Part shown: one piece after another, positions 1,608 to 61,050 of the stretch | Layout of the letters: each line of letters opens with the position of its first letter | Numbering within the stretch: the stretch's first letter is position 1 | Assembly (NCBI GenBank): GCA_043803945.1 | Contig: JAZDJN010000111.1 | Span: forward strand, 11,811 to 75,810 | Reading direction: 5' to 3' | Source of the DNA: a bacterium | GTDB lineage: Bacteria > Bacteroidota > Ignavibacteria > UBA10030 | DNA: 64,000 bases | Notes under the pieces: model-generated | What the model was told of the DNA's origin: nothing | The model's database searches: none | Seen by the model: the letters and a program-made list of their open reading frames with translations, nothing else | Made by a program: the position numbers and the translations under genes

Positions 1608-1633
1608 CGAAGCCGTTCCTTGGTCTGTCGAAA

Positions 1634-2692: not shown

Positions 2693-2805
2693 TGTTACTC
2701 CTTCATTGATTCGTTGTCTCTGTGTTGAAATCATACAATTAATTTGTCATCGGCGAACCGTGACTCTGAAGCGAACTCGCTCCAGTATCACTCCTTGTTT
2801 GGATA

Positions 2806-3297: not shown

Positions 3298-3299
3298 GC

Positions 3300-44523: not shown

Positions 44524-44638
44524 GGCAGCAAATCTCTATTTGGTAAAAGCATAATACTAGAAATAATGGAAATATTCATCTGCACTTGATAGCCTGTTGC
44601 CCTATGCAGGCAACAGGTTATCAAAAAACCTATCCTCC

Positions 44639-46521
44639 TTATTTTGCTAATACCATTTTTCTTAAGAATGTTTTGCCTGCGGCATTTAACCGATAGAAGT
44701 AAACTCCACTAGATAGCTTCTGAGCATTAAACTCTATTTGATGTCGGCCAACTGTCATTTCAGACTCGACCAATGTTGCCACTTCCTGTCCAATAATGGA
44801 ATACACTTTAAGAGAAACTTGGCTTGCCCGAGGCAGCTCAAATTGTATCGTCGTTGTCGGATTAAAAGGATTAGGATAATTCTGTGATAATGAAAAACTC
44901 ATTGGAACACTCTCCATCCCATCATCCCGTGTGACCATTGTAGTTGTGGTCGCCTGAATTCTACCTTCTGTATGCGGCGTAAGCTCCCCAAGACCTGCAA
45001 CGTATTCACTGAGCACTTGAAATTCAGTCAGGGCAGACTGAACTTTGACATCGGAACAAGGGATTCCGAGGAAGCTGAGGAACAGCGGAACAAATTCATT
45101 TGCTGCCACGGTATATTCTTTCATTGGATCAAGAGTATTTCCACCGATCTTCACATTGACCAGTCGTGAGTAAGGAGCAGCCTTCGGGTCATAGGTATAG
45201 CTCATCCCGGAGACTTGAGCAAGGAATTCATCATTTTCTTCTATCGAGGATAGGCCAAACTCAATTCCCGCCAATAAATCTGCCCCTTTGATTTTGAATG
45301 TTGCCATACGGTACCCCAGACCATTTTCCTCATTGAATCCATATCCAACGACTCGGAACAGATCGGCAGCCACGATTGGCCCTTTATATAACGGTTGCGC
45401 TGTGGATCCTCCGACCTCGAATGAGATGTCCGTCTTAAATTTTTCCCTATAGGCATCTGTTACCAGGTTACCGATGGGTGTATCTTTTTTTCCGAACGCT
45501 ACAAGATCCTGAGCAACTTCTTCAAGATAATCTTTTGCTACTGCGATCTGCTGTGTAAACAGAGGTCCGTACGTTTGTTCAATTGACTGGATGAGTGTTT
45601 TCACTACACCTTCGACGGTTGGTTCGATCGGAATTGTCTCGTCAACTGTCACTAACTCATAGTCGAGTACTCTCACAGAGGTTGGAGTGACTGCTAATCG
45701 GAGTTTACCAATATTCTGATAGAATGCGTTTGCTTGAACTATCAATGTCGATTCTCCACTCGGATTGGTTACTCTCACAGGCTGCTTTACAAGATAATGA
45801 TCATGTCCGCCTACGATAACGTCTATCCCCGGTATATAGCTTGCAAGGAGCTGATCCAGTGTCAGACCAAGATGCGAGAGACAGATAATTACCGAACAAC
45901 CTTGTGCCTTCAATTCAGCAACCATCATCGCAGCGGTTTCGAGGACTGTCGTATCGATCCAGGCTGGTGAGGGCTGCGAGAGGCTGTTTGTGGACGGGGT
46001 CGTCAATCCGAACATGCCTACTTTTATTCTTCCGCACTCCTTGACATAGTCAGGCCAGATGTATCGTTTTAACCATTCACGCTCGGGTCTTCAAGGTTAA
46101 TGTTTGCGGAGAGCATTGGAAAAGCAGCATCCGTGAATGCACTGTCTAAAGCCATCTGAAGAATGGCGGGTGTTAAATCAAACTCATGATTTCCGACCGC
46201 CATTGCATCGAGGCCGAGAGAGAGCAATAACTTTAGTTCGGCCACTCCGAAGAATGAATTGAAGAAGAGGTCGCCCACGAATGCATCGCCGGCATGAAGG
46301 AAGAGCACATTCGGTTCGGTCATCTTTGTATAGCCGACATAGGACGCTACTCGCGCAATTCCTCCCAAGCCCCCTTGCAGCGCTGCATTTCGCGGACCGA
46401 TGGTGCCAAGCGTCGAGTGAGTGTCATTAATATGGAGAATAGTCAGTGTATCAACCTGAGCTCTTGAGATTGAGAAGATGAACAGGCTGACCAGCAGGAA
46501 CAACGATGTACGGGTTTTCAT
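44639..46521 (-). pseudogene. 5'-nucleotidase/metallophosphatase with T9SS C-terminal domain, split by a 1-nt frameshift near 46070
   Basis: NDTH, AGD, GNHEFD and LSAN in the first ORF; SHLG, GGHDH and LSQNYPNPFNP..GVYFY in the second; the frames join with -1. Confidence 0.82.
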
Positions 46522-46628
46522 GAAAGCCTCCAATTGAGATAATTGATGATAGGTGATTGAGTGAGCGATTGTCCACAGAAGTTGCTGAGTGGATTGGAGC
46601 GTGGGCACAGATTCAAGCGGCGAAGTTC

Positions 46629-47321
46629 TTACCCATCTACGATCATACCATCCCGCAGGTGGATGATGCGATCGGCATAGTCGCACAGACGAAGGTCGTG
46701 ACTTGCAATGATAACACACCTCCCCTGGTCTTTCGCACAGCGGGCGAGCAGTCGGATGATCACCATCCCCTGTGACGATTCAAGACATGCCGTGGGCTCA
46801 TCGGCAAGCAGAAGTTCGGCATCATTTGCACAAGCACGTGCAATTGCCACGCGCTGCTTCTCCCCCTGGCTCATCCCAGATGGATATTTATCCGACAAGT
46901 GTAAAAGTTCTAAGTGTGAAAGTACGTTAAGAGATTTGGCAGTTGTCTCGCTCTTTCCTCTGCCAGCGAACTGCAAGACGAGCCGGATATTCTCCAAGGC
47001 CGTCAATGCATCGATCAATAAGAAATTTTGAAAAATGAATCCCAGGTGTCGTGCCCGTAGAGCTTGCAGATCATCCTGATTGTACTGGGATATGGGGCGA
47101 CCGAAGAGTTCTACACTCCCCTCCGTCGATTCTAATAAACCCGCCAGGACAGTGAGCAAGGTGGTCTTCCCGCTTCCGCTTGGGCCTAAGAGGAGGAGAA
47201 GTTCTCCCTGGACTGCTTCCAGGGAGATGTCTGAGAGTGCCTGAGTACGAGTTCCATTTGATCGGAAGCTTTTTGATACATTGTTCAATCTCACAATCGG
47301 TGACTGAGCGGAGTAATTCAT
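46629..47321 (-). CDS. ABC transporter ATP-binding protein (LolD/MacB-like)
   Basis: GPSGSGKT, GFIFQ, SQGEKQRVAIAR, ADEPT and SHD; ATGA overlap with the permease. Confidence 0.92.
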   Translation of the reverse strand: MNYSAQSPIVRLNNVSKSFRSNGTRTQALSDISLEAVQGELLLLLGPSGSGKTTLLTVLAGLLESTEGSVELFGRPISQYNQDDLQALRARHLGFIFQNFLLIDALTALENIRLVLQFAGRGKSETTAKSLNVLSHLELLHLSDKYPSGMSQGEKQRVAIARACANDAELLLADEPTACLESSQGMVIIRLLARCAKDQGRCVIIASHDLRLCDYADRIIHLRDGMIVDG

Positions 47322-48436
47322 GAGAGATAGACCTCCATAGGATAGATTCGGCGCAATTGGCGATACGAAAGGAATGAGCTCACCAGGTTCATCCCCAGAG
47401 CTGCGACCACTATGACGACAATTTGTTCGAGAGAAGTCTTCGTCGAAACCTCCGGGGAAACAACTTCCACGCAATGAATGAGGGGAAAAAAGAAGACGAG
47501 AGCTGTTATACAACTCGCGAGAGCAATTTCAAATCCTTGGGTGAGAATGAGTCTGGAAAGAAATGATCGAGGTGATCCAAGGATTTTCATCACCGCAAAG
47601 TCTTTTCGTTTTTCGAGGATCGTAATGGTTAGAATGAGACTCAGAATGGTAGTCAGCACCACCGCTCCAATCAACGCAAGTGTATACAGGAGAGGAAGAA
47701 ATCCCGATTGCATCTCACGGATGTTATTCTCCACGAACTCTCGTTGACAAAATACCTCCGTACCGGGAAGTTCGTTCTTAATACGTTCACGTGTAGCAAT
47801 GAGATCCGCATCGTTTTTTACGGTAACGAGAAAGCAGGAGGTCAGGCCTGAAAATCCAGCCAACGCGCGTGCCTTCGCAATACTCACAAAAGCATACTGG
47901 AGAACGAACATATTTGTCTGTTCGCTGATCCCCACAATCTTCAAAGTGTCGTTTCGGATCACCAGGGTGTTTCCCAGCACGAAACTATTTTTAAGAGCAA
48001 ACGCGCGATCAAGAATAATTTCATCATCCTCTCTCAGCGAACGCCCTTCCTTAAGTTGCGGTGGGGCTCCTATCCCTGTCGCTAGATCATACCCGGCTAC
48101 ATACACGGTCGATGATTGTGTTCCCTTTGTGATCGTCGTTAACAAAAAGAGCAAAGGAGAGACCGACTCAATCCCGGAAATCGTGCGTAGAATATTTCCA
48201 TGACCAGTTGAGAGAATTGAAAAACCTCGAAGAATATTTGTTGTCCCCTCCTGTAACACCCAGAGATCGGCCTTTGTCTGGCGTACATACTCCACCGAAC
48301 CATCGGCAACCCCATGGTAAATCGACATGAGGAAGAGCATCAGAATAATACAGAGAGCCATTCCCCCTACGGTCAATCCCATCCGAAGAGGTTGAGATCG
48401 CAGGATTCGATATGCAAACGAGAACATAGCATTCAC
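47318..48436 (-). CDS. ABC transporter permease (MacB/FtsX family)
   Basis: One TM, periplasmic domain, three TM; E...AVMKILG motif. Confidence 0.88.
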   Translation of the reverse strand: MNAMFSFAYRILRSQPLRMGLTVGGMALCIILMLFLMSIYHGVADGSVEYVRQTKADLWVLQEGTTNILRGFSILSTGHGNILRTISGIESVSPLLFLLTTITKGTQSSTVYVAGYDLATGIGAPPQLKEGRSLREDDEIILDRAFALKNSFVLGNTLVIRNDTLKIVGISEQTNMFVLQYAFVSIAKARALAGFSGLTSCFLVTVKNDADLIATRERIKNELPGTEVFCQREFVENNIREMQSGFLPLLYTLALIGAVVLTTILSLILTITILEKRKDFAVMKILGSPRSFLSRLILTQGFEIALASCITALVFFFPLIHCVEVVSPEVSTKTSLEQIVVIVVAALGMNLVSSFLSYRQLRRIYPMEVYLS

Positions 48437-48448
48437 CCTTCGTGGTGT

Positions 48449-49534
48449 TCAGGTAAACATCGGGACTTCAGGTAACAACTTGCCGCGAATCCGATTAAAA
48501 ATATCTTCCAGACTTGGACCTGTGATCGTTAAGCCATGATTTTTTAATCCGACGACCGTGCGTTGTGGTTCACCGGTGTTTCTCAGCAACTCCACAACCT
48601 CCTCAGCAAGCTCCACGGTACCACATGGATAGTTCTGTCGCGTGCAAAGGATATTATCCATCCAGGCATGGACATGCACAATTGCGTGTACGTCAGGATA
48701 CGAGCGATAGATCAATTCATGTTCGACGGCATCCACTGACACTCTTGCCTTTGGATCATAGTCCGAGGGAACACTCACGAGGGCCGAACCGCTGGAGTAA
48801 TCGAAGCCCTTCACGAGGAGAATATCTTTTCCCACGTGAGCGAGATTTGACTTATTCACACCTCGACCGCTCATCCAAAACGTCGAGCTTCCAAGCTCCG
48901 GCACCGTCTCGCGTGCACTGAGATTGCCATAGCTGAGCCCGGTGATTCCATAAATTTTATAGAGATGATGCAATTCCTGTTCTGTCAGTACAGAGCGCAG
49001 CGGAAACGGTAATGGCAGCACACCAAGTGCATCCAACTCTTTTCCGAATGCCTGAATCTGCTGCACCACTTCCGTGGGCTGCCAGCATTGCTCGGGTAAA
49101 TCCGTTGAAAATTGATTCCCTATTGCATAGTGCGATCCAACAATGGGCAGCATGGTGCGATAGATCTGCTCGGCATTCTGCGGGAGATGATAGAATCCTG
49201 CCTCTGGAGTGGTAACATAGACCTCTCCTTTTGAGCCGTTATCCGGTGCGACATAGATCAACAAATTTGAGAGTGTCCGGATCAATGTGGTGTAACACAG
49301 CGAGCGCAAATTCTCATAGGAACGGTCAGCAGCAACGAGAGAGACAATAAATACCGACTGCGAATGCCGTCGTGCTGCGCGTGGATGCTCGAGAGTAGTC
49401 GCATTCAATTGAAATGCAACTCCCTCGGTTTGTTCACCGATTTGATGTCCGTGGTGTATAAACTCTTCGACAATACCATCGACAATTCTATCGCGATGGG
49501 CATCGATTCCATCTTTATTGAAGGAAAATTTCAT
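48449..49534 (-). CDS. Class II aldolase/adducin family protein with N-terminal extension
   Basis: GNLSAR, SVD..EH, IVHVH and LKNHG metal ligands. Confidence 0.8.
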   Translation of the reverse strand: MKFSFNKDGIDAHRDRIVDGIVEEFIHHGHQIGEQTEGVAFQLNATTLEHPRAARRHSQSVFIVSLVAADRSYENLRSLCYTTLIRTLSNLLIYVAPDNGSKGEVYVTTPEAGFYHLPQNAEQIYRTMLPIVGSHYAIGNQFSTDLPEQCWQPTEVVQQIQAFGKELDALGVLPLPFPLRSVLTEQELHHLYKIYGITGLSYGNLSARETVPELGSSTFWMSGRGVNKSNLAHVGKDILLVKGFDYSSGSALVSVPSDYDPKARVSVDAVEHELIYRSYPDVHAIVHVHAWMDNILCTRQNYPCGTVELAEEVVELLRNTGEPQRTVVGLKNHGLTITGPSLEDIFNRIRGKLLPEVPMFT

Positions 49535-50943
49535 GGCACTTGCTCCTCTTGATATTCTTGAAATAGTAGATGATCTCGTTCTATGCTCTGGGCAAACGTT
49601 TCGCGATCGCGCATGAGGTGATGTGATCCGGCATTGACGCCAACGATTGCCGGACGGGCAAAACCAAACGACGATTCTAGTTGTGTGAAATACGCCCCTG
49701 AGTCCATCACAGCGAGTATCTCCCCCGATCGAACAGGCGGCATCGGTTTATTTCGATATATGACATCTCCGGCAAAACAGGCGGGACCGATAAGTGTGAC
49801 TCGTTCCGTTCGTAATTTCGTGACATCATTGCAGAGAAACACTTCATGGTATTCATAGAACGTCGGCAGCGTTACGGTACTCACGCCGCCATCTGTAATC
49901 AGCCATGTTCCCACCCCTTCGCGTGTCTTCATCCGATGGACTGTTAAGAGTAATAGTTGATTGGGGCTGACAATGCAGCGGCCGGGCTCATACAGTAGTT
50001 CAGGCAATTCTCCGGTCGGAAACGATGAAATAACAGCATCCGAGATCGCACGAGTAAAATCAATAAAGTCTGACGAGTGTTTCTGCAGATCCAGAGTTGG
50101 AAGTGTTCCAAATGCCTGGTAGAGCAACATTTCGAGAGAGTTGAACTCCCGACTCGTGCTGGAGGCGAATCCTCCTCCGACATCAAGCACCCGGACACGC
50201 ATGTCGTGATCTTGAATCCGTTCAAGAAGCGAGGGTAAACATCTTAATGCATTCACATAGTCGGCAGGACGGGTAATTCCCGTTCCGATATGAAAATGGA
50301 GTCCACGAAACGAGAGACTGCGATTCTGCTCAAGCATCACCAGCGCATTTTCGATCTCGCTCCCTTTCAGGTCGAATCCGAATGCGCATCCTTTCCTGCT
50401 TCCTGTGGCTGATCCGTCATTCATCCCTTTGGGAACATAATCCGGATTAATCCGAAGGAGAATATTCACAGCCGCATCCTCCTGGTCGGCGATGCGCTGC
50501 AGCGCTTCAAGTTCCTCAAGAGAATCAACAATAATGAGCTTTGCTCCCGCACAGACACATTGGTGCAGAAACTCATCAGTTTTGCATGGCCCATTGACAA
50601 TGATCTCCTCTTCCTGAAATCCTGCTTTCTGTGCCAATTCCAATTCGAAGGGCGTCATTACCTCCGCGTGCAATCCTGCCTGTTGAAGAATGTGAATGAC
50701 ACCAGGTACACCGTTGCATTTAAACGGATAATGCACTGTTACTTTTCCCGGATAGCTTTGCTCGGCACTTTCGCGGAATTTGAGTGCAGTTTCATAAAGC
50801 CGTTGCTCGTGGACAATATGGAGTGGTGTTCCATACTCTTCTGCCAACGCGAGCGTCCGGATACCATCCATCACTAATTCACCTGCTTCGTTGGTTTGGA
50901 GTCCCCAGGCTTGAGGATGTATTGTTGTTGTCATGATCGTCAC
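49531..50943 (-). CDS. PLP-dependent fold-III decarboxylase (Orn/DAP/Arg family)
   Basis: YPFKCN, HFHIG, DVGGG, EPGR, GPACFAGD and GAY. Confidence 0.88.
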   Translation of the reverse strand: MTIMTTTIHPQAWGLQTNEAGELVMDGIRTLALAEEYGTPLHIVHEQRLYETALKFRESAEQSYPGKVTVHYPFKCNGVPGVIHILQQAGLHAEVMTPFELELAQKAGFQEEEIIVNGPCKTDEFLHQCVCAGAKLIIVDSLEELEALQRIADQEDAAVNILLRINPDYVPKGMNDGSATGSRKGCAFGFDLKGSEIENALVMLEQNRSLSFRGLHFHIGTGITRPADYVNALRCLPSLLERIQDHDMRVRVLDVGGGFASSTSREFNSLEMLLYQAFGTLPTLDLQKHSSDFIDFTRAISDAVISSFPTGELPELLYEPGRCIVSPNQLLLLTVHRMKTREGVGTWLITDGGVSTVTLPTFYEYHEVFLCNDVTKLRTERVTLIGPACFAGDVIYRNKPMPPVRSGEILAVMDSGAYFTQLESSFGFARPAIVGVNAGSHHLMRDRETFAQSIERDHLLFQEYQEEQVP

Positions 50944-50971
50944 CTGTGAAAAATTTCTACTCCATAATACC

Positions 50972-52150
50972 TTATGAAACTCCTTCGGTTGTCACAGATT
51001 TGTCATGATGCTGTAAAACTCCCGTTGCCTGTTTCACCGCACAAAGCTCCTTCCGGTAGATGGCAAACTCCTTATCCCGTTCAAGACCAAGATGCTCGGC
51101 TGCACGAAGGGCGAGAAGATTCTCGTCGCTCATCCAGGTGGTTTCAAGAGTCTGGTAGTGCAATGCAATCTTCACCATCTCCTGTAAAAGGAGTCGATAG
51201 ATACGTGAACCTTGATAATGCTTTTTAATACCCACAGCGTAGATGAGAAGGTTTCGTACACATCTTCGTTCCTGGAGAAAGCGGAAATATTTCAGTGTAC
51301 CTACACGGCCATCCAATTTTTTTAGGAGTGGATTGATATCCAACACACATTCAAGAACGCCCACCGGCTGGTGTTTATATTCCACAATGATGATTAACTC
51401 CGGTAATGTCACCAGATCAAGATATTTTGCAGAGAAGTCATACTCTTCTTTACTGAGGGGGAGGAAATACCAGTTCTCCGAAAATGCATCGTTGAATACT
51501 TCCCGAATCCGTTCCAGCTCATTCTGTAAATCCTTTTTGTGAAATGTTCGGACGGTGAAGTCAGGTAATTTTTTTGACTCTAATAAGTCGCCATACCGAC
51601 GACGAACATACCCGGCGATATCAGTATTTTTCCTGGTATGGAGGTTTTTAGAGACACGAAATCCAGCTTGTTCCATCAGCATCGGGTAGTAGGATGGATT
51701 ATAGGGTTGGAAGAACGCAGGAGCGTCCCCGAACTTATTGATCTGCATCCCCAATTCAGAATAGTGATTGGGATTGAATGGCCCTTCGAGCGTATTGATT
51801 CCCTTCGCTCGACATAACTGTTCAACATGCTGAAACAGGTTGCAGACAGCGTGGATGTCATTGAAGGACTCAAAGAATCCAAAGAATGCCGTTCGTTGCC
51901 CGAATCGCTCCCAGTGTGAATGATTCACTACTACAGCACAACGCGAGACAGGCACATCGTCATGATAACAGACGACGAGACAGACTTCCCCCCGTGCAAA
52001 GTAGGGATTGCGCTCAGGATCGAGTACTCTGCGCACTTCCGAGTGAAGCGGTGGAATCCAGTTCTGATCCCCTTGATAAATCAATCGGGGAAGCTGCAGA
52101 AAATCGTTCATCGATCGACGATTGTCGACTCTTCGAGTAGTATAGGACAT
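50972..52150 (-). CDS. YghO-like GNAT-fold protein (family that includes bacterial ceramide synthase)
   Basis: LP.LIY..D.NWIPPL, NPYF, FGFFES, GPFN, PYNP.YY and FNDAF..NW. Confidence 0.72.
   Translation of the reverse strand: MSYTTRRVDNRRSMNDFLQLPRLIYQGDQNWIPPLHSEVRRVLDPERNPYFARGEVCLVVCYHDDVPVSRCAVVVNHSHWERFGQRTAFFGFFESFNDIHAVCNLFQHVEQLCRAKGINTLEGPFNPNHYSELGMQINKFGDAPAFFQPYNPSYYPMLMEQAGFRVSKNLHTRKNTDIAGYVRRRYGDLLESKKLPDFTVRTFHKKDLQNELERIREVFNDAFSENWYFLPLSKEEYDFSAKYLDLVTLPELIIIVEYKHQPVGVLECVLDINPLLKKLDGRVGTLKYFRFLQERRCVRNLLIYAVGIKKHYQGSRIYRLLLQEMVKIALHYQTLETTWMSDENLLALRAAEHLGLERDKEFAIYRKELCAVKQATGVLQHHDKSVTTEGVS
50990..51005. promoter_or_regulatory. TGTCA-N6-TGTCA direct repeat (OmpR/PhoB-type site) upstream of the decarboxylase gene
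   Basis: TGTCAcagattTGTCA. Confidence 0.55.
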
Positions 52151-54012
52151 GGTGTGTGCTCTTTCGAAATTCGTTCAACGACATAGTTATCATAGATGAA
52201 TGAACAATCAACGTTATGGAGTTCTCTCGCCAGCCTCCGATCCGACAAGAGAACATCTTGAAGAGACGATGGCCGCTCACGATACACAAGGAGGTTCCGG
52301 TATGTCATCACCGCACCCTCCCTTCCCACGCGGACAGAAGATCGCAGGAGCTGCTCATACGCGGCATCAGGCATCCATTCAAAAATATTTGTGAAATTGA
52401 ACCTGGTAATGCAGGAGTCAGGAAGCGTGGAGAAGTAATGTTCACAGGTGTCAGTCATCGTTTCGATCCGATCTAAACGCTCACGTATGGTTTCGTTATT
52501 CTCCGGGCGAAGATAGAGAGGTAATGCTCTCGCGTTCGGATAGGTGCCAAGCAGGATGTATGACAGGAAGTTGTTCTCTTGGAGCGGCAGCAGCGTGAGT
52601 GCCTGCTTCACTTTTGCAGAAAAATTCCTACCGAATGAGAACGACCGATCCAGATAGCGGAAGAATGCCTTATCGAAGAGGAGCGACATGAAGCTTCTAC
52701 TCAAGAGCACCGTTGTAAAGACCCACCAAAGAGGTCCCTCCCATCGACTGCGAAAGAGAGCAACCCGCTCCTCAACACTCTCAGATGAAAAAAATCCTGC
52801 AAGAGTCTTCTTTCCGATGATACAGTAAAGAAAGATCCTGAGCAGTTTCATGTATCGTTCAAAAAGGCCGCAGTGGAGTATACCATATTCAATTTTTTTT
52901 CTTTGAGTATCCCAGTAGTTCCGACTGGTCTCATTCAGAAAGTGTCGCACGTTGAGGTACTGCTCATAGCGTACTTCAGATCGATGCACTCCAATAAATT
53001 CGAGCAATTCATTATGCGACAGCGCTTTGAATGCCGCGATCTTTAGTTCGAGAAGGTGGTTTTGACAGGGATTGATATCGAGTGCGATCACCTTCGCCGG
53101 ATTATCAAGCAGAAATGCAAGGGCATTGCATCCTCCTGAAGTAATCGTGAACACGATGTCTCCTTCGGTAATCTGGAATGCTTTCCGGTCGAGCTGTGGA
53201 TCCTCCCAGCACTGGGCATACAGGATATCCTGGAACACACGATTCGACCGGCCTATAGATTTGGCTTCTTGTTGTTCTCTGTTCTCCTCCCGTACGGCCA
53301 GTCCTTTTTTTGTATGGTGCACAGCCCAATCGAACACTGCCGGAAGACCGATGAGCACAGCGTAAAAGAATTCTCCGGTGTAGGATGCAACGAGACATCC
53401 CGGTATAAACAGAACGTAGAGCGCATTGTATCGGAAACCATCCCAGTTGATACTGAATTCATGGAGAGCATTCCCCAACGACCTGAAGCTTCGTACAGTG
53501 GGCATAAGCCGTGGGACCGTTCTGTAATATACTTCAAAGTCCTTTTTGAACGCACTCTGTAATGAACGCTCCTCATACTGAATAATCTGAATGTAATGGA
53601 GAGTGAAAAGGAGTGGGAGAATCATTCCAGGATAGGGTAAACAAAGGCTGAAGGCACACATCGCGAGAAGGTCGGCAAGGTAAATTGGATTGCGTACGAT
53701 GCGATAGGGACCTTTTCCAAGAAGCCTGTCGCTTTGAATGCGAAAGGCCATGATCCGTTCCGATTGAAGAATTGTTCCCGCCCACATGCGGAGCAATGAT
53801 GATATGGCTAGAAGAAATGCAGCACAAGAAAATCCGAGCGAGGTTGAAAGTGGAACCGATACTCCAAAGAATGCTCCGAGTTGGGTGGATAAGGTTGGAA
53901 GCGATGCGTACCATCCATAACACAATGAACAGACAACCAGGACGATTAGCAGCGAAATGAAAATTCGTGCTTCAAATTCCCATCGTTGCAGAGTATAAAG
54001 AATCTGTTTCAT
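52108..54012 (-). CDS. Fusion of a PEMT/ICMT-type membrane methyltransferase and a DUF3419 (BtaA-like) aminocarboxypropyl transferase
   Basis: N-terminal TMs with GPY..VRNP.Y and EE..L...F...Y...VPR; C-terminal YAQCWEDP..D, TSGGCN, DINP.Q..LLELK, NIFEW and Y.N. Confidence 0.82.
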   Translation of the reverse strand: MKQILYTLQRWEFEARIFISLLIVLVVCSLCYGWYASLPTLSTQLGAFFGVSVPLSTSLGFSCAAFLLAISSLLRMWAGTILQSERIMAFRIQSDRLLGKGPYRIVRNPIYLADLLAMCAFSLCLPYPGMILPLLFTLHYIQIIQYEERSLQSAFKKDFEVYYRTVPRLMPTVRSFRSLGNALHEFSINWDGFRYNALYVLFIPGCLVASYTGEFFYAVLIGLPAVFDWAVHHTKKGLAVREENREQQEAKSIGRSNRVFQDILYAQCWEDPQLDRKAFQITEGDIVFTITSGGCNALAFLLDNPAKVIALDINPCQNHLLELKIAAFKALSHNELLEFIGVHRSEVRYEQYLNVRHFLNETSRNYWDTQRKKIEYGILHCGLFERYMKLLRIFLYCIIGKKTLAGFFSSESVEERVALFRSRWEGPLWWVFTTVLLSRSFMSLLFDKAFFRYLDRSFSFGRNFSAKVKQALTLLPLQENNFLSYILLGTYPNARALPLYLRPENNETIRERLDRIETMTDTCEHYFSTLPDSCITRFNFTNIFEWMPDAAYEQLLRSSVRVGREGAVMTYRNLLVYRERPSSLQDVLLSDRRLARELHNVDCSFIYDNYVVERISKEHTPCPILLEESTIVDR

Positions 54013-54021
54013 GATAGCCTC

Positions 54022-54957
54022 CTAATTTGGACAACAAATTTGTAGAGCTGATGGAACCACCTCCACTGTACAGGGAGTGGTACCGAGGAGTTCTCCATCT
54101 GCTTCGATAAGGACTTTCTCTGGTGATTCAATATGGAGTGAAGTGCTGCGGCGATAACTAAACCATGGGCAAGCGACATGCGAACCCGAATAAATGCGCG
54201 GGAAACTTGAGAGACGTTGCAGAATGGACAAATCACGCATCATCACGATATCCAATATACCGTCATCGGGTTGCGCATACGGTGCGAGATTCATTCCACC
54301 GCCTGTGAACGCACCGTTCGCGATAACAACTCCGGTAAAAGAATCGGTGATCCTATCGTACGTTCCACTTGTAAGGGTGAGGAGTTGGTTTTTATGGCTG
54401 AAGACACTCTGAATTGTGCCTAGACCAAATCCGAAGGATCCCCCCAGGCGCTTGTACTGAGTCCCAACTCGTTTGACGACACTTCCACCAATACCCAGTT
54501 GACATTCATTGATGAAATATTTGCTGGCTTTGGTATCAGATGCGGTCGTATACTCAATCTTAGCGGCATCATACCAACGTGCACGCCCCCCTGCGATCAA
54601 GGCAAATTGATCTTCGAGAGAAAGAGGCAATCCGATGCTTTGGGCAAAACCATGTCCCGTGCCGCTGCTAATGATTCCAAGCTCGCAACGATGAGTATTA
54701 TCCCGCCCACTTGTCATCAAGCCGTTAAGCACTTCATGGATTGTCCCATCACCGCCGACGACAATGATTAATCCGGCACCAGTGGATATAACCTCTTTCG
54801 TCAATTCTTCTGCATGACCCTTAGTATCGGTGCAATGCATTGTCCACCCGGATCCAACATACCGCGTCGCAAGGGTTGAAATCTCTTTCTTCTTCGAAGC
54901 GGTTTTTCCACCGGCAGAGGCAGGATTGAGAATAATATGTATCGATCTACTATTCAT
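54022..54957 (-). CDS. Diacylglycerol/sphingosine kinase family lipid kinase
   Basis: ILNPAS, GGDGT, GTG, N...GGG...AP and ADGE. Confidence 0.85.
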   Translation of the reverse strand: MNSRSIHIILNPASAGGKTASKKKEISTLATRYVGSGWTMHCTDTKGHAEELTKEVISTGAGLIIVVGGDGTIHEVLNGLMTSGRDNTHRCELGIISSGTGHGFAQSIGLPLSLEDQFALIAGGRARWYDAAKIEYTTASDTKASKYFINECQLGIGGSVVKRVGTQYKRLGGSFGFGLGTIQSVFSHKNQLLTLTSGTYDRITDSFTGVVIANGAFTGGGMNLAPYAQPDDGILDIVMMRDLSILQRLSSFPRIYSGSHVACPWFSYRRSTSLHIESPEKVLIEADGELLGTTPCTVEVVPSALQICCPN

Positions 54958-54979
54958 GATTTCTCCTGATGACTAAACG

Positions 54980-55084
54980 TTATTGAGACGACCATTGCAG
55001 ATACTCTGCGATCTTTCGCATTGAGATCACGACGAAGGCCAGAAGCAACACAGCAGCAAAACCGATTAGCATCCACAGTAACAT
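54980..55084 (-). CDS. Small single-TM protein (34 aa, MLLWMLIGFAAVLLLAFVVISMRKIAEYLQWSSQ)
   Basis: AAGAGG RBS, hydrophobic helix followed by RK, first position in the operon; below the ORF-track cutoff. Confidence 0.55.
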   Translation of the reverse strand: MLLWMLIGFAAVLLLAFVVISMRKIAEYLQWSSQ

Positions 55085-55131
55085 AACCATCCTCTTTTTG
55101 ATACAAGGATACTAGTTGCAGAAGAGAGTGT

Positions 55132-55158
55132 TGTCACAGAAATGTCAAGGAAGTGTAA
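55132..55158. promoter_or_regulatory. TGTCA-N6-TGTCA-N6-TGTAA site at the lipid-operon promoter
   Basis: 11-bp periodic half-sites; on the minus strand the proximal GTGACA lies 17 nt from TAGTAT. Confidence 0.7.
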
Positions 55159-55318
55159 AAGAAGAATTGTTTGTACTGGAACTCCCTTCACGCTCTGAAC
55201 TTGATGTGGCGCTTCCCAACCCACCGGTGAAGGAGAGTTCAAGATTCCCTTTTTTAAATTGTGCGGCAGCTACAACGTTTAATACAACCATCAGCAGAAG
55301 TATCTTTGTGAGTTTCAT
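55145..55318 (-). pseudogene. Truncated outer-membrane beta-barrel-like gene (57 aa remnant)
   Basis: RBS, signal peptide and AQFKKGNLELSFTGG first strand, then a stop inside the regulatory repeat. Confidence 0.5.
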
Positions 55319-55340
55319 ATAAACCATCCTTTCATTTAAA

Positions 55341-55943
55341 TTATTGCATTCCAATACGAATACTAGCTCCTGCACCAAGGATAGGAGTAATAGGATTAAG
55401 ATTGGCATGTCCATAAATACCGAATCCGATATATGGACAAGGTTGCCAGAGATATTGCGCTTCCAACGCCAGACCAATTGTATGATAGTCGCTCGAATAG
55501 TGAGGGACTGAAGAGAAGCTGTTCAAAGGATTGATGTCCCAGCCAATCCACGAACTTCCTTTTTGAGTGATCTTTTCACCCCGTTTCAGGCCAGTAAGAT
55601 ATCCCAGCCCTACTCCGAAAGAGGGAGAAAGATGACCCTTCTGACGGGTGATTCAGTAGAGGAAGGCAATTTCTTCTGAGCTCTCTAAGGGCATATCAAG
55701 CCTTCCGATCTGCAATTCTTTACTCTTACAGTATCGAAACGTTATTGTGGTTGAGTGTACTTGCAACGAAAGAATCGCAATTCTGGAAGACGATGCGAAG
55801 CCTCCTTTGAGCTTCGTTACTAAACCAACAGGGCTGTAGATTGCTTCAATCGATAATCGGTTTTGCTGTACTGAATCCTGGGCGAGTACCGAAGTGAAAA
55901 CCATTCCAAGGATTAGAAGTATTAAAAGACTGATCTGTTTCAT
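55341..55943 (-). pseudogene. Secreted/outer-membrane protein interrupted by an in-frame TGA at 55653-55655
   Basis: MKQISLL signal peptide; the frame continues open past the TGA into ORF 55341-55526 with amphipathic beta-strands. Confidence 0.68.
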
Positions 55944-55994
55944 AGGATCTCCTTCGTTCTTTGACTCCAACTTATATTCTTACTCTATCAGATT

Positions 55995-56021
55995 TGTCAT
56001 AAAATTGTCAAAGAGAGGTCA
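55995..56021. promoter_or_regulatory. TGTCA-N6-TGTCA-N6-GGTCA site
   Basis: TGTCAtaaaatTGTCAaagagaGGTCA about 50 nt upstream of ATG 55943. Confidence 0.68.
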
Positions 56022-56204
56022 AAGGTTTTCGAAGCATAATAGGCATTTTCCCATTCGCTATATCGCTCCACTCCCCTTGTATCACTGCTTGAAAAGACCT
56101 CATCTGTGCTCCAACCCAAAAACACCACACCCCATAAACTTTTAAGTCTACGGGGTGTGACAGAATCTCTGGGTCTCAGTGTTCGGAGAGACCTCCCGGA
56201 GAAG

Positions 56205-56762
56205 TTATTTAAGCGCTCCTGCAATTGCATAACCAAAGATGAACGAGACACGATTACCGGCTGGACTTGTTGCAAAGGCTAGATTAACAGGAATGCTGAC
56301 ACCTCCATAATTGATGGATTTTCCTACGGCAACCACAAGAGAAGTGTTCACTCCTTTTTCTCCACCGAGAATTACATTCGGTCCCATTCCAAACTCATAG
56401 CCGCTGGGAAGACGAATTCCCATAGCCAGCGTGGCACTGGGAATAACCAATCCATATTCAACGCCTCCCAGGAACGGAACTCCCTGAATGACAAATGATG
56501 GACCGCCGCCTTCAGGAATAAGCTGGTACTCAAAATGCCAACCGAACTGGCTAATGATTGAGCCTACCTTCCTGTCCTTTAGTTTCCGAACGATCTCGGT
56601 GTTCCCTGGAATGTAGGTGACACCCAGTCGAGGACCTCCGAGATTTCGCTCAGCAAAGGATACCTCATTGGGATACACGGCTGCTTGTGCCTTTACACTT
56701 TGAAGAGAGCACGTAAGAGCAATCGCTACCAGAAGCAGTGTTGTGAAGAATGATGTTTTCAT
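56205..56762 (-). CDS. Hypothetical exported protein
   Basis: GGAGG RBS, signal peptide, GPRLGVT and QFGWHFE, beta-rich. Confidence 0.7.
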   Translation of the reverse strand: MKTSFFTTLLLVAIALTCSLQSVKAQAAVYPNEVSFAERNLGGPRLGVTYIPGNTEIVRKLKDRKVGSIISQFGWHFEYQLIPEGGGPSFVIQGVPFLGGVEYGLVIPSATLAMGIRLPSGYEFGMGPNVILGGEKGVNTSLVVAVGKSINYGGVSIPVNLAFATSPAGNRVSFIFGYAIAGALK

Positions 56763-56833
56763 GATGACCTCCAAAATAAGTGAGAGTGATTGTTGATTAC
56801 CGGACTACCGGTTCATTGTTGTGTAAACTTACT

Positions 56834-56878
56834 TGTAACGGAATTGTAAAGTGTCACGAAATTGTCAAAGTACAGTCA
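56834..56878. promoter_or_regulatory. Cluster of 11-bp periodic direct repeats (TGTAA-N6-TGTAA; TGTCA-N6-TGTCA-N6-AGTCA)
   Basis: Half-sites at 56834, 56845, 56852, 56863 and 56874. Confidence 0.65.
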
Positions 56879-56940
56879 GAGAATGATCACGCACTATTTC
56901 CAACTGCCGGGTGCAAGATGGGCAGAGCTATGAAAAGAAT

Positions 56941-56967
56941 TGTCACAGAAATGTCATAAGAAGGTAA
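56941..56967. promoter_or_regulatory. TGTCA-N6-TGTCA-N6-GGTAA site
   Basis: TGTCAcagaaaTGTCA identical to the core at 55132. Confidence 0.65.
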
Positions 56968-57059
56968 TTCTTCATACAGTATGAACAGAGATGATGAGGG
57001 GAATCAGCGAATGAAAGGGATGTCGTTATATCATCGATGCCAATTTTCTCAGCATTCAC

Positions 57060-57740
57060 CTAGCGGCATAATTTATAGCCGGCGGTATGAATGGTCACAA
57101 GATGTTTTGGTTTAGCAGGATTGATTTCAATTTTTTTTCTAATCGAGAGGATGTAGTTATCCACCGTTCGCGTGCTTGGTGTTACTTCGAATCCCCACAC
57201 GTCATCGAGCAACTGTGCGCGAGAGATTACTTCGCCTTCGTGTTGCACAAAATATTTCAACAGCTCAAATTCTTTAGAACTGAGTTTCAGTTGCTTATTT
57301 CCACGTGCAGCTTCCTGCTTCTTGAAATCGACATGGACTTGTCCAATATCGGTCTCATCAATTTCGCTTTGTACCTCAGTTTGGCGCCGGAGCAGTGCTT
57401 TTACCCGTGCAATCAGTTCTTTGATACTGAACGGTTTTGTGACATAGTCATCGGCACCCAGTTCCAATCCGAGGACTTTATCAACCTCCTCTCCTCTGCC
57501 GGTCAGCATAATAATGGGAGTCTGGACTCCTGCGGTACGCAACTGTTTACAGACATCGAATCCATTGATCCCTGGAAGCATCACATCCAGAATAATGAGA
57601 TCGAACTTCTTTCGCTTTCCCATCATCAATCCCTCAGTTCCATCGGATGATGCTGAAATCTCGAAATGTTCCGCCTGGAGATTATCTTTCAAACCGCGGA
57701 GAATGGCCGTATCGTCTTCAACGATGAGGATTTTCTTCAT
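57060..57740 (-). CDS. OmpR/PhoB-family response regulator
   Basis: VEDD, LDVMLP, GADDYVTKPF and winged helix RTVDNYI..IRKKIE, GYK. Confidence 0.95.
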   Translation of the reverse strand: MKKILIVEDDTAILRGLKDNLQAEHFEISASSDGTEGLMMGKRKKFDLIILDVMLPGINGFDVCKQLRTAGVQTPIIMLTGRGEEVDKVLGLELGADDYVTKPFSIKELIARVKALLRRQTEVQSEIDETDIGQVHVDFKKQEAARGNKQLKLSSKEFELLKYFVQHEGEVISRAQLLDDVWGFEVTPSTRTVDNYILSIRKKIEINPAKPKHLVTIHTAGYKLCR

Positions 57741-60211
57741 GGGTGTCTTCTCGCTTTATTCGTTGTGATTGGGAAGCGCATTGTAAATTTGCTGCCAACA
57801 CCTACTGCACTCTCAACTGTAATCGTACCCTGGTGTGCGTCAACAATATGTTTGACGAGTGAAAGGCCAAGACCGGCACCACCGACCTGGCAGCTTCGGT
57901 CATCGGAGATTCGATAGAAGCGTTCAAAGATCTTCGTCGATTCCGAGGAAGGTATGCCAAAACCTGTATCGGAGATCTCGAGTAAAAGATGACCTTGTTC
58001 TTTGCAGGCTTTCAAATTAATCTCCGATTTATCCTTTGAATATTTTAAGGCATTCGACAGAAGATTCAGGATCGCCTGCTCGAGAGCGTCCGGATCAGCA
58101 GAGATGGCGGGTAATTTCTTTTGGATCGCAACCCTGACTCTGGCTTTATGTTTTTTCACCTCGTACTCAATCGCTTTCAATGCCCGATGAGTAACCCCCT
58201 CAATGCTCAAAGGAACAAATTTGTATTCCCGCATCCCACGTTCGATTTTGGCGAAATCCATAATGTTGCCGATCAGCCGCGAAAGGCGCTCACTTTCACC
58301 ATAAATAATCCTCAGATATTCCTTCTGTTTTCTCCGACTTACGTTCCGCTGAACCATCAGAGTCTCTGCGAACATCCGGATGGAGGTCAATGGCATACGC
58401 AATTCATGAGAAATGCTTGATACAAAGTAGGACTTAAGGGCATTCAGTTCTTCCAACCGCTGCTTCTCTTGCCGCGTCAGGAGGATTTGTTCCTGCAGGA
58501 TCAACCGATCGAGAATATCCCGGGTGTGGGCACAGACCGTCTCCAGTAGAGAAACTTCTTCATCCTGAATGATTTCAGTCTGCACATGGGGTGTCAGCGT
58601 GAGGATACCAAACAGTTTCTGCTCACCTATGCAAATCGGAATGCATAACGACCACTTCATCAATCCAAGCCATTCCTGAATCTCCCTCAGTTCAGGAAGG
58701 TCGGCCGATCCTTTTTTCACTCCCCTGATGATCATTCCACAGTTGAGGGCCGATTGGATTTTGTCCGGTACTTGCACTTTGTCAGGCGGCTTCATTCCGA
58801 TACCGGCGAGGTACTCCCATCCATCGGATGTATTCCTATAAAGATCGACGGCGTTCGTTGGAATGCACTGATGGACAGATTCTACGAGATGCCGATAGAG
58901 TTCCTCCCGGCTTAACGATGAATCAAGACTTTTCCTAATTTGATCGAGAGCGCGCCGATAGTTGGCACGAGCAGCAAAAAAGGTTTCATCCACAAAACCT
59001 TGCAGCCAGCGTCGGAAAGGATGCAGCGCAAGGCCAAAAATCAGCATGAGCAATGCAAAGGAAAAATATTTCCCAAAGACTTTCTCCCCTCCAACCATAG
59101 AGACAGTGAGCAGTACCGTTAATACATAGATGACAACAATAATAAATGAGAGAATGCTGTAGACGATTGTACGGTTGATGAGCAATTCAATATCGAGAAG
59201 TTGGTACCGAAGGAATGCAATCGCAAAGGAGACCGGCACGGCGAGGAAACAGATGGTGGTGTACTCTTCAGGAACTAAAACTTGGGAAAAAATGATTTGG
59301 GGAAGAATATGAACAATCAGATAAGGCAGAATGCCTATTCCCAATCCCCAGAGAATCCAGAATAATTGTTTTCGTTCCTGCATCGTCAGGTTTTGTCGCG
59401 TTGAAGATAAAATGAAATAGAATCCTCCACCGGAAAAAAGAAAAAGAGAACTATGAAAGAGATCGAAGAGTAGTTGGAATGTATTGAGTGTTGATAGATC
59501 TGCTGTTTCCAGTACCTTGATGTGGCTGAGCCCAAGAAAAAATCCTACACAGAGAACCGCGATCATAATCCATGGAGTGGCTTGCGCCAATCGCTTCACC
59601 CTTTCGACAGGAAATGATAAACCGAATATCAGGAAGGAGACTGCTACACCCAGATAGGCCATAAACCAGATTGTCCTGCTGATGTACATCTCCCACGATC
59701 CCGGCGGGGCCGCTCCCCACGTAATCATGATCGTTGTGCCAAAGGAAACCATCATCCAATGCGTCACACGGGCCGCTAATTTATCCGATTGCGTGAGAAG
59801 AACAAAAACTCCCACAAAGAAAATACAGAGACCGACGATGAGTGAAATGACGAGGAATCGCGATGATTGATAGAACTCTATCAATCTGATTGAGGTCGTG
59901 AAACTGCTGTCGCCCCGTAGAAATGTACAGCGGATTGAAGAATGGAGGGGGCGGACATCGGCAAGATATTCTATCATCTCAGGAAAATGAACTTCCACCT
60001 CTTCCCATCTTAGAATAGTATCTCCGGCTTTAGCATCCCGACATGCACTTGAATCAATGATCTCAGCAACAAGGGGATGTAGATCGCCTTGAGCCACCTC
60101 AAAGGGTATACCAGGTCGATCGAGAATTTTAGGAATGTGATTAAAGCAGAGAATCAGAATGATGAGGTCGACACAGAGATAGAGGACGGTACGAAAGCCC
60201 AATGGCTTCAT
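57737..60211 (-). CDS. Multi-TM sensor histidine kinase with GAF-like domain
   Basis: SHELRMPLT H-box, NLLSNALKYS, DTGFGI, FERFYR and GAGLGL; many TMs; ATGA overlap with the regulator. Confidence 0.92.
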   Translation of the reverse strand: MKPLGFRTVLYLCVDLIILILCFNHIPKILDRPGIPFEVAQGDLHPLVAEIIDSSACRDAKAGDTILRWEEVEVHFPEMIEYLADVRPLHSSIRCTFLRGDSSFTTSIRLIEFYQSSRFLVISLIVGLCIFFVGVFVLLTQSDKLAARVTHWMMVSFGTTIMITWGAAPPGSWEMYISRTIWFMAYLGVAVSFLIFGLSFPVERVKRLAQATPWIMIAVLCVGFFLGLSHIKVLETADLSTLNTFQLLFDLFHSSLFLFSGGGFYFILSSTRQNLTMQERKQLFWILWGLGIGILPYLIVHILPQIIFSQVLVPEEYTTICFLAVPVSFAIAFLRYQLLDIELLINRTIVYSILSFIIVVIYVLTVLLTVSMVGGEKVFGKYFSFALLMLIFGLALHPFRRWLQGFVDETFFAARANYRRALDQIRKSLDSSLSREELYRHLVESVHQCIPTNAVDLYRNTSDGWEYLAGIGMKPPDKVQVPDKIQSALNCGMIIRGVKKGSADLPELREIQEWLGLMKWSLCIPICIGEQKLFGILTLTPHVQTEIIQDEEVSLLETVCAHTRDILDRLILQEQILLTRQEKQRLEELNALKSYFVSSISHELRMPLTSIRMFAETLMVQRNVSRRKQKEYLRIIYGESERLSRLIGNIMDFAKIERGMREYKFVPLSIEGVTHRALKAIEYEVKKHKARVRVAIQKKLPAISADPDALEQAILNLLSNALKYSKDKSEINLKACKEQGHLLLEISDTGFGIPSSESTKIFERFYRISDDRSCQVGGAGLGLSLVKHIVDAHQGTITVESAVGVGSKFTMRFPITTNKARRHP

Positions 60212-60362
60212 GATCCAGTGCCTTATAGATGGGGTTCTTCCAATTGCCGAAAGTGTAAGAACTTCAAGCGAAAGAATCAAGCCTTCCGGAATTACACTGG
60301 GAAGAAAAGGAAAGGCCACTCAGTAAGCGGCCTTGAACAGATACATTTGTGTGAAAGTTCGT

Positions 60363-60926
60363 CTATTTCAGCCGATGGGCAATTGTCGCAGCTGCAACGA
60401 TTTTCAATCCATCCCACACAGAGAATACGAAGAAACCCGCCTGGAATGATTTTGACCAGTCATGAAAATAAACAAGATTGAGCTGCACCACACCGGCGCT
60501 AAAAATAATGATCATTCCGGCCACCATAAAAACAACTGCGAATGCATACCTGGCAAAGGCTGAATACAGAGACCGGTATAATGGCAGGGAGAAGAATGTG
60601 CCGATAATATAAGCGGCAATGGGGAAACTCAGAAGATATCCGCCCGTCGGCCCGAGCAATCGTGCTGGCCCAAAACCTGCATGGGCAAACACCGGAACTC
60701 CGATCAATCCTACAGCGAGATACAGAACCATGCTCAAAAATCCATAGCGAGGCCCAAGAACCACTCCTGCAAGGAGAACAACAAGCGTCTGGAAGGTCAT
60801 CGGTACGGGCTGCAATGGAATCTCGAGTTGTGCTCCGACAGCAGTGAGGAGGACAAACAGCGAGATGAGTAATGCTTGAGTAAATACTTTATGCCTGGCA
60901 AGTGATAAACTGCTTAACGTAGTCAT
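60363..60926 (-). CDS. bioY: Biotin transporter BioY
   Basis: VPMTFQT, G.PVF and GPTGGYL; start at ATG 60926. Confidence 0.9.
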   Translation of the reverse strand: MTTLSSLSLARHKVFTQALLISLFVLLTAVGAQLEIPLQPVPMTFQTLVVLLAGVVLGPRYGFLSMVLYLAVGLIGVPVFAHAGFGPARLLGPTGGYLLSFPIAAYIIGTFFSLPLYRSLYSAFARYAFAVVFMVAGMIIIFSAGVVQLNLVYFHDWSKSFQAGFFVFSVWDGLKIVAAATIAHRLK

Positions 60927-61050
60927 CGAACTCTTTCTCCTAATGAGCGACAACTGATTGTACGTAAATGTGATTGGAGATGCAATGGTACTGATTTGCA
61001 ATTAAAGCAATTTCACCTAAATTTCTCCACCAGAAAAATAAGGAGGACAT

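Follow-up and report, generated by a model that had tools for sequence, protein, structure and literature searches.

The enzymes closest to the one described here are those of betaine-lipid synthesis. We take BtaA and BtaB to make diacylglyceryl-N,N,N-trimethylhomoserine (DGTS) in alpha-proteobacteria, including Rhodobacter sphaeroides and Sinorhizobium meliloti, and BtaA is, to our knowledge, the only characterised member of the DUF3419 family. In Chlamydomonas and fungi the bifunctional betaine-lipid synthase BTA1 suffices alone for the formation of DGTS. Here we examine a gene, designated F, that lies in a 64,000-nucleotide stretch of DNA (the window; assembly GCA_043803945.1, contig JAZDJN010000111.1, positions 11,811 to 75,810) from a bacterium of the Ignavibacteria lineage UBA10030, and that joins a membrane methyltransferase to a BtaA-like domain. 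F is like BTA1 in that a single polypeptide carries the methyltransferase ahead of the BtaA-like domain; however, the methyltransferase of BTA1 is class I, soluble and BtaB-like, whereas the N-domain of F is of the PEMT type and carries transmembrane (TM) helices, and BTA1 has no known decarboxylase, GNAT or kinase partners. The likeness to BtaA and BtaB resides in the C-domain, a full-length DUF3419 homolog sharing the motifs YxQxWEDP, SGGCN and D(L/I)NP, and in the coupling of two activities dependent on S-adenosylmethionine (SAM). The differences are the distance of this domain from BtaA (26% identity, and a clade of its own), a methyltransferase that is a multi-TM protein of the PEMT/ICMT type where BtaB is a soluble class I enzyme, and the presence of four more enzymes and an exporter as fixed partners. 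These neighbours are designated K (kinase), G (GNAT), D (decarboxylase), A (aldolase-like) and P/T (ATP-binding cassette [ABC] exporter). F forms the fixed core of an operon of five to seven genes, K-F-G-D-A(-P-T), that are inherited together in many uncultured bacteria, and the product of this operon is probably not DGTS.

The initial annotation, made from the nucleotide sequence, had assigned hallmarks of PEMT/ICMT to the N-terminal part of F and of DUF3419 to the C-terminal part, and both assignments are borne out. In Pfam, residues 64-157 match PF04191 (PEMT) at 36.7 bits, above the cut-off of 25 (E 6.3e-9), and residues 257-612 match PF11899 (DUF3419) at 232.1 bits (cut-off 28.2; E 1.6e-68), the latter being a full-length family match above the gathering score, with positions 3-382 of the 385 in the profile covered; the same Pfam scan gave the N-domain no class I methyltransferase match. 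The motifs recorded initially are present, and their conservation was assessed in an alignment of 20 relatives of F at 47-55% identity. In the N-domain these comprise G101-P102-Y103 and R107-N108-P109-I110-Y111 (GPY..VRNPIY), most residues of which are invariant, and E147-E148 (YEE), the invariants of the alignment reading GPY..RNPIY..D and HY..YEE. The N-domain contains, in addition, some 90 conserved extra residues, among which G192, R194, N196, W229 and H233 are invariant. In the C-domain, Y265 with C268-W269-E270-D271-P272 (YAQCWEDP), and S292-G293-G294 with N296 (TSGGCN), are mostly invariant; we take the motifs Y.Q.WEDP, SGGCN and D.NP of this domain to mark the SAM site.

Both the PEMT and the DUF3419 profile are matched by all 20 aligned relatives, and ICMT is matched weakly by ten. 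PEMT is likewise the better-scoring of these two methyltransferase profiles for the N-domain of F itself, against which the NCBIfam equivalogs for ICMT (25.4 bits against a cut-off of 160), LmtA (20.4 against 325) and MddA (17.7 against 270) are all sub-threshold. A hydropathy scan with an 18-residue window places TM segments at approximately residues 13-31, 52-82 and 109-136, all in the N-terminal part, and the structural neighbours of the N-domain in the Atlas are ICMT/PEMT-family clusters (TM-score 0.79); a sequence search of the PDB with F returned one weak match (E 0.014). The N-domain belongs to the PEMT/ICMT superfamily of membrane methyltransferases. A predicted complex of the N-domain with the C-domain scored 0.00, which amounts to no answer and from which no inference is drawn.

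The fusion is not a peculiarity of one assembly, an eventuality that, like a failure of the N-domain to match PEMT/ICMT profiles, would have refuted the initial annotation. Among 5.8 billion proteins searched, 8000 candidates were scored and 545 matched at E <= 0.001; PEMT and DUF3419 occur together in 117 of the 120 best relatives (546-648 amino acids and 48-57% identical, the window's own protein excepted), and a relative of F is encoded in 272 of 288 candidate stretches drawn from contigs representing one genome per species. The best matches carry Bacteroidota, Chitinophagaceae and Ignavibacteriales labels, which, with the T9SS sorting domain of a neighbouring gene, suggests that the bacterium probably belongs to the FCB group. 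The operon was compared across the best 80 loci, all from metagenome-assembled genomes, among the labels of which are Bacteroidota, Ignavibacteriota, Aminicenantes/Acidobacteriota, Gemmatimonadota, WOR-3, Trueperaceae and Planctomycetia. These labels are intermixed in the domain tree described below (WOR-3 with Bacteroidales; Trueperaceae with Planctomycetia and Gemmatimonadota), which suggests horizontal spread. Both halves could be placed in ORFs (open reading frames) at 79 loci; they are fused in 67 of these and encoded by adjacent separate genes in 12. Eleven of these 12 break at the domain boundary; the remaining one (L079) breaks elsewhere and resembles a frameshift. In the tree of DUF3419 domains the split forms lie dispersed among the fused ones, and the occurrence of the same pair in both states argues for cooperation of the two activities. 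Stand-alone N-domain orthologs are also common (about 240 amino acids, 42-53% identity) and bear the JGI name Ste14; Calab_3442 of the cultured Caldithrix abyssi DSM 13497 is an ortholog of this methyltransferase half.

Within the phylum the distribution of the fusion is patchy. The window's genome (5.54 Mb, 100% complete, 0.4% contaminated) contains one DUF3419 gene, and 44 genomes in a phylum sample of 301 match F at E <= 1e-20. Both halves are matched in only three of these (G000, which is the window's own, G024 and G037), the other 41 matches being stand-alone DUF3419 genes at 25-35% identity. Larger fusions of F were not found in a search for proteins exceeding 1110 amino acids, which yielded one weak fungal protein (E 1.8e-14, 49% of the query). 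A second PEMT-family fusion is encoded elsewhere in the window's genome (contig C48, L091:1258-3192, plus strand) by an ORF of at least 644 amino acids, open at the end of the locus, with PEMT (30.9 bits) and LGT (prolipoprotein diacylglyceryl transferase, 69.9 bits) domains and a weak PAP2 match.

When the neighbours of F in the window were compared with the 80 loci by tblastn, K and G were each matched in 78, D in 73, A in 70, P in 58 and T in 54, and in 78 K lay immediately before F. Wherever the genes are present they share one strand and keep the order K-F-G-D-A(-P-T), with all seven found in order in 53 loci, and the colinearity of K, G, D and A with F extends over at least eight phylum labels. 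Most absences fall at contig ends; P and T are missing despite at least 4 kb of sequence after A in seven loci (L019, L037, L040, L041, L042, L050 and L056). In five Gemmatimonadota loci (L061, L063, L065, L069 and L070) D and A form one ORF of 817-919 amino acids; in L065 an ORF of 1201 amino acids also extends into the permease. The genes are tightly packed in the window, where the junctions from K/F through A/P measure 9, -43, 28, -4 and 12 nt, the ATG of F following 9 nt past the stop codon of K and the start of T lying on the stop codon of P.

The DUF3419 domain itself sets F apart from the betaine-lipid enzymes. In the Sinorhizobium locus used for comparison (L093), a DUF3419 gene of 416 amino acids (376 bits) is directly followed by a class I methyltransferase, a pair that presumably represents the canonical btaA-btaB arrangement; in BLASTP the C-domain of F shows the 26% identity cited above to this BtaA-like protein, with Y.Q.WEDP, SGGCN and D.NP kept. 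Canonical DUF3419 genes (298-362 bits) also occur in the window's phylum sample, accompanied by a class I methyltransferase in L103, L105, L106 and L108 and without one in L107, so that the class I gene follows the canonical BtaA-type gene in five of the six loci examined, L093 included. A class I (BtaB-type) methyltransferase gene is not adjacent to F, no genome-wide search for btaB having been made. In a midpoint-rooted maximum-likelihood tree of 32 hand-chosen DUF3419 domains, with L099 and L093 on long branches, the canonical BtaA group (support 100/99) excludes all 20 PEMT-associated rows, which form, fused and split together, a clade of their own (97/92). A further clade (93/90) unites L099 with the DUF3419 genes found beside UbiA, described below, and it joins the PEMT-associated clade against the canonical group (100/99). 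By these comparisons, the C-domain of F falls outside the canonical BtaA group, in a separate clade.

These relationships, together with the operon, bear on one explanation of F, namely that it is a self-sufficient DGTS synthase, an analogue of BTA1 with a PEMT-type domain in place of the BtaB-type one, and that its neighbours supply, recycle or tailor lipids. We consider this improbable. It would accommodate the BTA1-like order of methyltransferase and BtaA-like domain, the single DUF3419 gene in a genome with no canonical btaA-btaB pair, and the secreted 5'-nucleotidase-type phosphatase downstream, which would fit a phosphate-starvation regulon. Yet strict colinearity of K, G, D and A with F across so many phylum labels is hard to explain for accessory genes, the DUF3419 domain falls outside the canonical clade, and the phylum sample also contains canonical btaA accompanied by a class I methyltransferase, which argues that the fusion is not simply this phylum's version of BtaAB. 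We know of no role in DGTS synthesis for a lipid kinase, a tandem GNAT, a decarboxylase dependent on pyridoxal phosphate (PLP) or an aldolase-like protein. The initial annotation had proposed that a membrane-bound partner of BtaA would be either a convergent or a chemically different solution. Since the clade is separate and the operon partners lack a known DGTS role, chemical difference is the better half of this proposal; a convergent substitute for BtaB in an ordinary betaine-lipid system is left unsupported by the low identity to rhizobial BtaA, the position outside the canonical clade and the fixed operon. The JGI names in the databases, which call these fusions a DGTS enzyme, are probably an over-annotation of the PEMT-DUF3419 clade.

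K scores 132.9 bits with TIGR00147 (cut-off 118.65) and contains the GGDGT motif, and its PDB relatives are DgkB-like proteins, BmrU and YegS. G gives only a marginal Pfam match, and nothing at E <= 10 in a PDB sequence search; its AlphaFold2 (AF2) model (pLDDT 90.1) has as top Foldseek matches a glucosamine N-acetyltransferase (5kf1, E 7e-15), the tandem GNATs 7q3a and 2wpw, MshD and N-myristoyltransferase (NMT). MAB_4324 and a clavulanate tandem GNAT count among the nearest solved structures, and the Atlas neighbours agree; G is thus predicted from its model to fold as a tandem GNAT. D reaches 259.6 bits with the lysA model in a protein search, below the cut-off of 297.9. The true lysA sits elsewhere in the window's genome (488.9 bits, where D receives 158.5 and 99.4 bits in the same search), and for both reasons D is regarded as a dedicated paralogue. 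Its PLP lysine is conserved, and its solved relatives in the PDB are LysA, FslC and BtrK, the last two of which decarboxylate amino acids already tethered to a larger scaffold (N-citrylornithine for FslC, a Glu-S-carrier protein for BtrK).

A, the start of which overlaps D by 4 nt, has invariant residues H287, H289 and H333 and matches PDB sequences only at E >= 0.09. Its AF2 model (pLDDT 89.2) resembles FucA over residues 147-357 (VIA Z 16.5) and CoaB (2gk4) over residues 1-134 (Z 11.2). Two more specific assignments of A were considered and dropped: as an MtnB-type methionine-salvage enzyme for the by-product methylthioadenosine, since A matches many other class II aldolases just as well as MtnB/APIP, and as a CoaB-like ligase in its N-domain, a Z of 11.2 being too weak on so common a flavodoxin-like fold. 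P and T are predicted from their domains to form an ABC exporter of the MacB type.

We propose, by analogy with the route from phosphatidylserine (PS) through phosphatidylethanolamine (PE) to phosphatidylcholine (PC), that F may be a bifunctional, membrane-anchored enzyme using SAM twice, within an operon for an amino-lipid other than DGTS, a reading that we find plausible but somewhat short of an even chance. The C-domain would transfer the 3-amino-3-carboxypropyl (ACP, homoserine) group of SAM to a membrane lipid, either at a hydroxyl or at a phosphate made by K. D would then decarboxylate the ACP head group to 3-aminopropyl, much as carboxy(nor)spermidine decarboxylase, which has the fold of D, turns an N-ACP group into aminopropyl. 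The PEMT-type N-domain would N-methylate the resulting amine within the membrane, PEMT-type enzymes being N-methyltransferases of the primary amine of PE; G may N-acylate the amine as an alternative or additional cap, and the MacB-type exporter P/T may move the lipid outward. The resemblance to PS synthase, PS decarboxylase and PEMT (Opi3) would lie in the succession of attaching an amino acid, decarboxylating it and N-methylating the product, whereas the amino-acid unit would derive from SAM and not from serine, D has the PLP fold III and is not a pyruvoyl PS decarboxylase, and the linkage to the lipid is probably an ether. We infer all of these chemical steps, their order, the identity of the acceptor lipid and the parts played by K and A, for which none of the readings considered here accounts.

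Other DUF3419 genes outside the canonical group provide a second frame of reference. The C-domain of F is 36% identical to a stand-alone DUF3419 protein of Brevibacillus laterosporus (L094), encoded in a cluster with an HMG-CoA-reductase-like gene, UbiA, a PPDK-like phosphotransferase, an unknown gene, a GNAT, an acyl-AMP ligase and a P450. Similar contexts appear in the phylum sample in L098, L100 and L101 (L097 being incomplete), so that the cluster recurs in Brevibacillus laterosporus and three Bacteroidota-sample genomes as UbiA, a PPDK_N/PEP-utilizers phosphotransferase, DUF3419, one or two unknown proteins, a G-like GNAT and an acyl-AMP ligase. A different context in the same sample (L099 and L102) combines a MacB-type permease and an ABC ATPase with DUF3419 and a GNAT; in L099 it is preceded by a class I/II aminotransferase of 438 amino acids, which, at a guess, could be an alpha-oxoamine synthase as in sphingolipid synthesis. 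In each of the six complete non-canonical clusters examined, a GNAT-type gene lies no more than two genes past DUF3419 on its downstream side, a regularity that also holds in the F operon, and G is detectably homologous to four of the six cluster GNATs (E 1.5e-11 to 4e-4). Directly upstream of DUF3419, moreover, the PPDK-like phosphotransferase gene is found in four of four complete UbiA-type loci, in the place that K holds at F, and no kinase-type gene is found there in any canonical btaA locus examined. These clusters therefore resemble the F operon in their sister-clade DUF3419 gene at 36% identity, their homologous GNAT partner, a kinase-type gene upstream and, in some, MacB-type ABC genes; they differ in that a PEMT-type methyltransferase is absent and that matches to D or A were not found, and in carrying isoprenoid or acyl-activation genes. 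We know of no characterisation of either cluster type.

Several points weigh against the proposed succession of decarboxylation and methylation. No match to D was found in the six non-canonical clusters with a GNAT, and the recurrence of the GNAT partner without D argues that the amine may be acylated, not methylated, in competition with both steps. The methyltransferase superfamily also O-methylates carboxylates (ICMT) and phosphates (LmtA) and methylates thiols (MddA), and the atom methylated by F cannot be read from its sequence, because the scores of all three equivalogs fall so far below their cut-offs. K and A have no necessary part in the route, and in L003 (positions 600-4697 of a 7.4-kb contig) the order is K-F-A with neither G nor D between, which shows that the operon core can vary. 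Finally, a trimethyl-aminopropyl ether lipid would be permanently cationic, and hence unusual as a bulk membrane lipid.

The GNAT partner is put to use in the main rival to the route proposed, in which the lipid-O-homoserine made by the DUF3419 domain would be N-acylated by G to an analogue of N-acetyl-S-farnesylcysteine and its carboxylate then methyl-esterified by the N-domain in the manner of ICMT, with D and A serving another step such as provision of an acyl or amine donor. ICMT requires an N-blocked substrate, N-acetyl-S-farnesylcysteine being the minimal one, a need that fits G acting first; the N-domain lies in the ICMT/PEMT clan, half of the aligned relatives match ICMT weakly, and the stand-alone orthologs are named Ste14. 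The N-domain indeed shares its membrane superfamily and its SAM-binding motif region with ICMT/Ste14, LmtA and MddA, but F is fused to DUF3419, and no fusion or pairing of those three with a DUF3419 enzyme is known. The route would also leave D, for all its presence in 73 loci, without a head-group substrate, because PLP-dependent decarboxylation needs a free alpha-amine and carboxylate, and PEMT outscores ICMT, the equivalog of which falls well under its cut-off. On balance we judge it rather unlikely.

The kinase-type genes bring in a phosphorylated variant, in which K would make a lipid phosphate and the DUF3419 domain would alkylate the phosphate oxygen with ACP to give a phosphatidylhomoserine-like lipid, D and the PEMT-type domain then yielding propanolamine-type and N-methylated forms. 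A kinase or phosphotransferase gene directly upstream of non-canonical DUF3419 in two unrelated cluster types, and its absence from that place in the canonical loci, are in keeping with this variant, and LmtA offers a precedent for SAM-dependent alkylation of a lipid phosphate. However, transfer of ACP to phosphate has no known precedent, a step order cannot be had from adjacency alone, and a dedicated diacylglycerol (DAG) kinase seems unnecessary where phosphatidic acid is already abundant in cells, all of which makes this variant quite improbable. Very unlikely in our estimation is a non-lipid product, whether a soluble or secreted small molecule (polyamine-like, or an N-acyl amino-acid metabolite) or a modification of a protein or envelope polymer. 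DUF3419 acceptors besides DAG are unknown, the solved relatives of D operate in siderophore and antibiotic pathways, and MacB-type pumps also export non-lipid substrates; against this stand an integral-membrane methyltransferase of a superfamily for which only lipid or lipidated substrates are known and the above-cut-off membership of K in a lipid-kinase family.

Returning to the amino-lipid operon proposed above, a more specific formulation may be ventured, which we hold, as a whole, to be possible but doubtful. The product would be an undescribed membrane lipid exported to the outer membrane, with a SAM-derived, N-methylated aminopropyl head of a "homocholine/propanolamine-type" that would be either ether-linked and phosphorus-free or phosphate-linked via K; and non-canonical DUF3419 with GNAT, often with a kinase, would mark out a family of lipid head-group pathways, as yet unexplored, among uncultured Bacteroidota, Ignavibacteriota, Acidobacteriota (Aminicenantes), Gemmatimonadota and others.

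Table 1. Features of the operon and of its flanks, in window coordinates
Feature	Coordinates	Strand	Basis or remark
Histidine kinase, possible dedicated regulator	57737-60319	-	Pfam
OmpR-type response regulator, possible dedicated regulator	57060-57740	-	Pfam
K, soluble YegS/BmrU/DgkB-type lipid kinase (DAGK_cat + YegS_C)	54022..54957	-	Pfam, TIGR00147
F, PEMT + DUF3419 fusion	52108..54012	-	Single ORF, 634 amino acids; exact coordinate match
F N-terminal domain (amino acids 1-250), integral-membrane PEMT/ICMT-superfamily SAM methyltransferase	53263..54012	-	Pfam, motifs, TM segments
F C-terminal domain (amino acids 251-634), putative non-canonical DUF3419/BtaA-like SAM-dependent 3-amino-3-carboxypropyl transferase	52108..53262	-	Pfam, identity, tree
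G, predicted tandem (double) GNAT acyl-CoA N-acyltransferase	50972..52150	-	AF2 model, Foldseek; overlaps end of F by 43 nt
D, fold-III PLP-dependent decarboxylase, LysA paralogue	49531..50943	-	Orn_Arg_deC_N + Orn_DAP_Arg_deC domains
A, flavodoxin/Rossmann-like N-domain + class II aldolase/adducin C-domain	48449..49534	-	Aldolase_II 59.6 bits, AF2 model
P, MacB/FtsX-type ABC exporter permease	47318..48436	-	MacB_PCD + FtsX domains
T, ABC transporter ATPase	46629..47321	-	ABC_tran 112.5 bits; likely start ATG at 47321, overlapping P stop
Start of Metallophos domain only	46069-46719	-	ORF directly downstream of T
5_nucleotid_C + type IX secretion system (T9SS) sorting tail	44639-46015	-	Second ORF downstream of T

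The flanks of the operon show further features. Upstream, the operon strand carries genes for a histidine kinase and an OmpR-type regulator, both in the window and in nine loci, and two more loci are cut inside the pair; this position suggests a possible link to the operon. The only strong terminator found (56162-56123, 18 pairs) lies upstream of the operon, within the 1.25 kb that separates an OMP-like gene from K (54958-56204). This interval, in which Pfam and Rfam find nothing, contains only two short ORFs (55145-55477 and 55653-55970), the starts of which resemble signal peptides. A scan for sigma-70 promoters gave no excess over shuffled sequences (31 found against 23.8 +/- 5.5), and there was no Rfam match at E <= 0.1 in positions 44000-61000, where no riboswitch or leader was identified. 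No sequencing runs were listed for positions 46600-56200. At the other end, the two ORFs downstream of T together resemble a single secreted 5'-nucleotidase of the UshA type, interrupted by a frameshift or stop codon, and both pieces are matched after T in four loci (L002, L011, L074 and L077). Some 10 kb from the end of the operon, a gene for a CDP-alcohol phosphatidyltransferase of 210 amino acids (36332-36964, plus strand) adjoins cinA, ligT, recA and recX, and belongs to ordinary phospholipid synthesis.

A literature search, which covered listings and a few passages, found no paper on the PEMT-DUF3419 architecture or the operon; nor did the listings show polar-lipid data for Caldithrix or anything on point about betaine lipids in bacteria or anaerobes, and passages of PMC11181052 had no bearing on the subject. 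In a passage of PMC7923214, a DUF3419 gene merely flanks a cluster. What appears to be new, as judged from the genes, is a putative head-group pathway of the BtaA-like kind in which the methyltransferase is of another class and further tailoring enzymes take part. The operon is borne by lineages that are dominant in anoxic sediments, in peat and in wastewater, habitats in which many intact polar lipids lack a known producer, and identification of its product would give a lipid class its source and a gene marker, as well as a function to a widespread PEMT/ICMT-type bacterial methyltransferase. The compact five-gene core, and the existence of a cultured carrier of the methyltransferase ortholog in Caldithrix abyssi DSM 13497, make the proposal directly testable. 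If true, it would show that membranes employ the aminocarboxypropyl group of SAM in a second chemical way.

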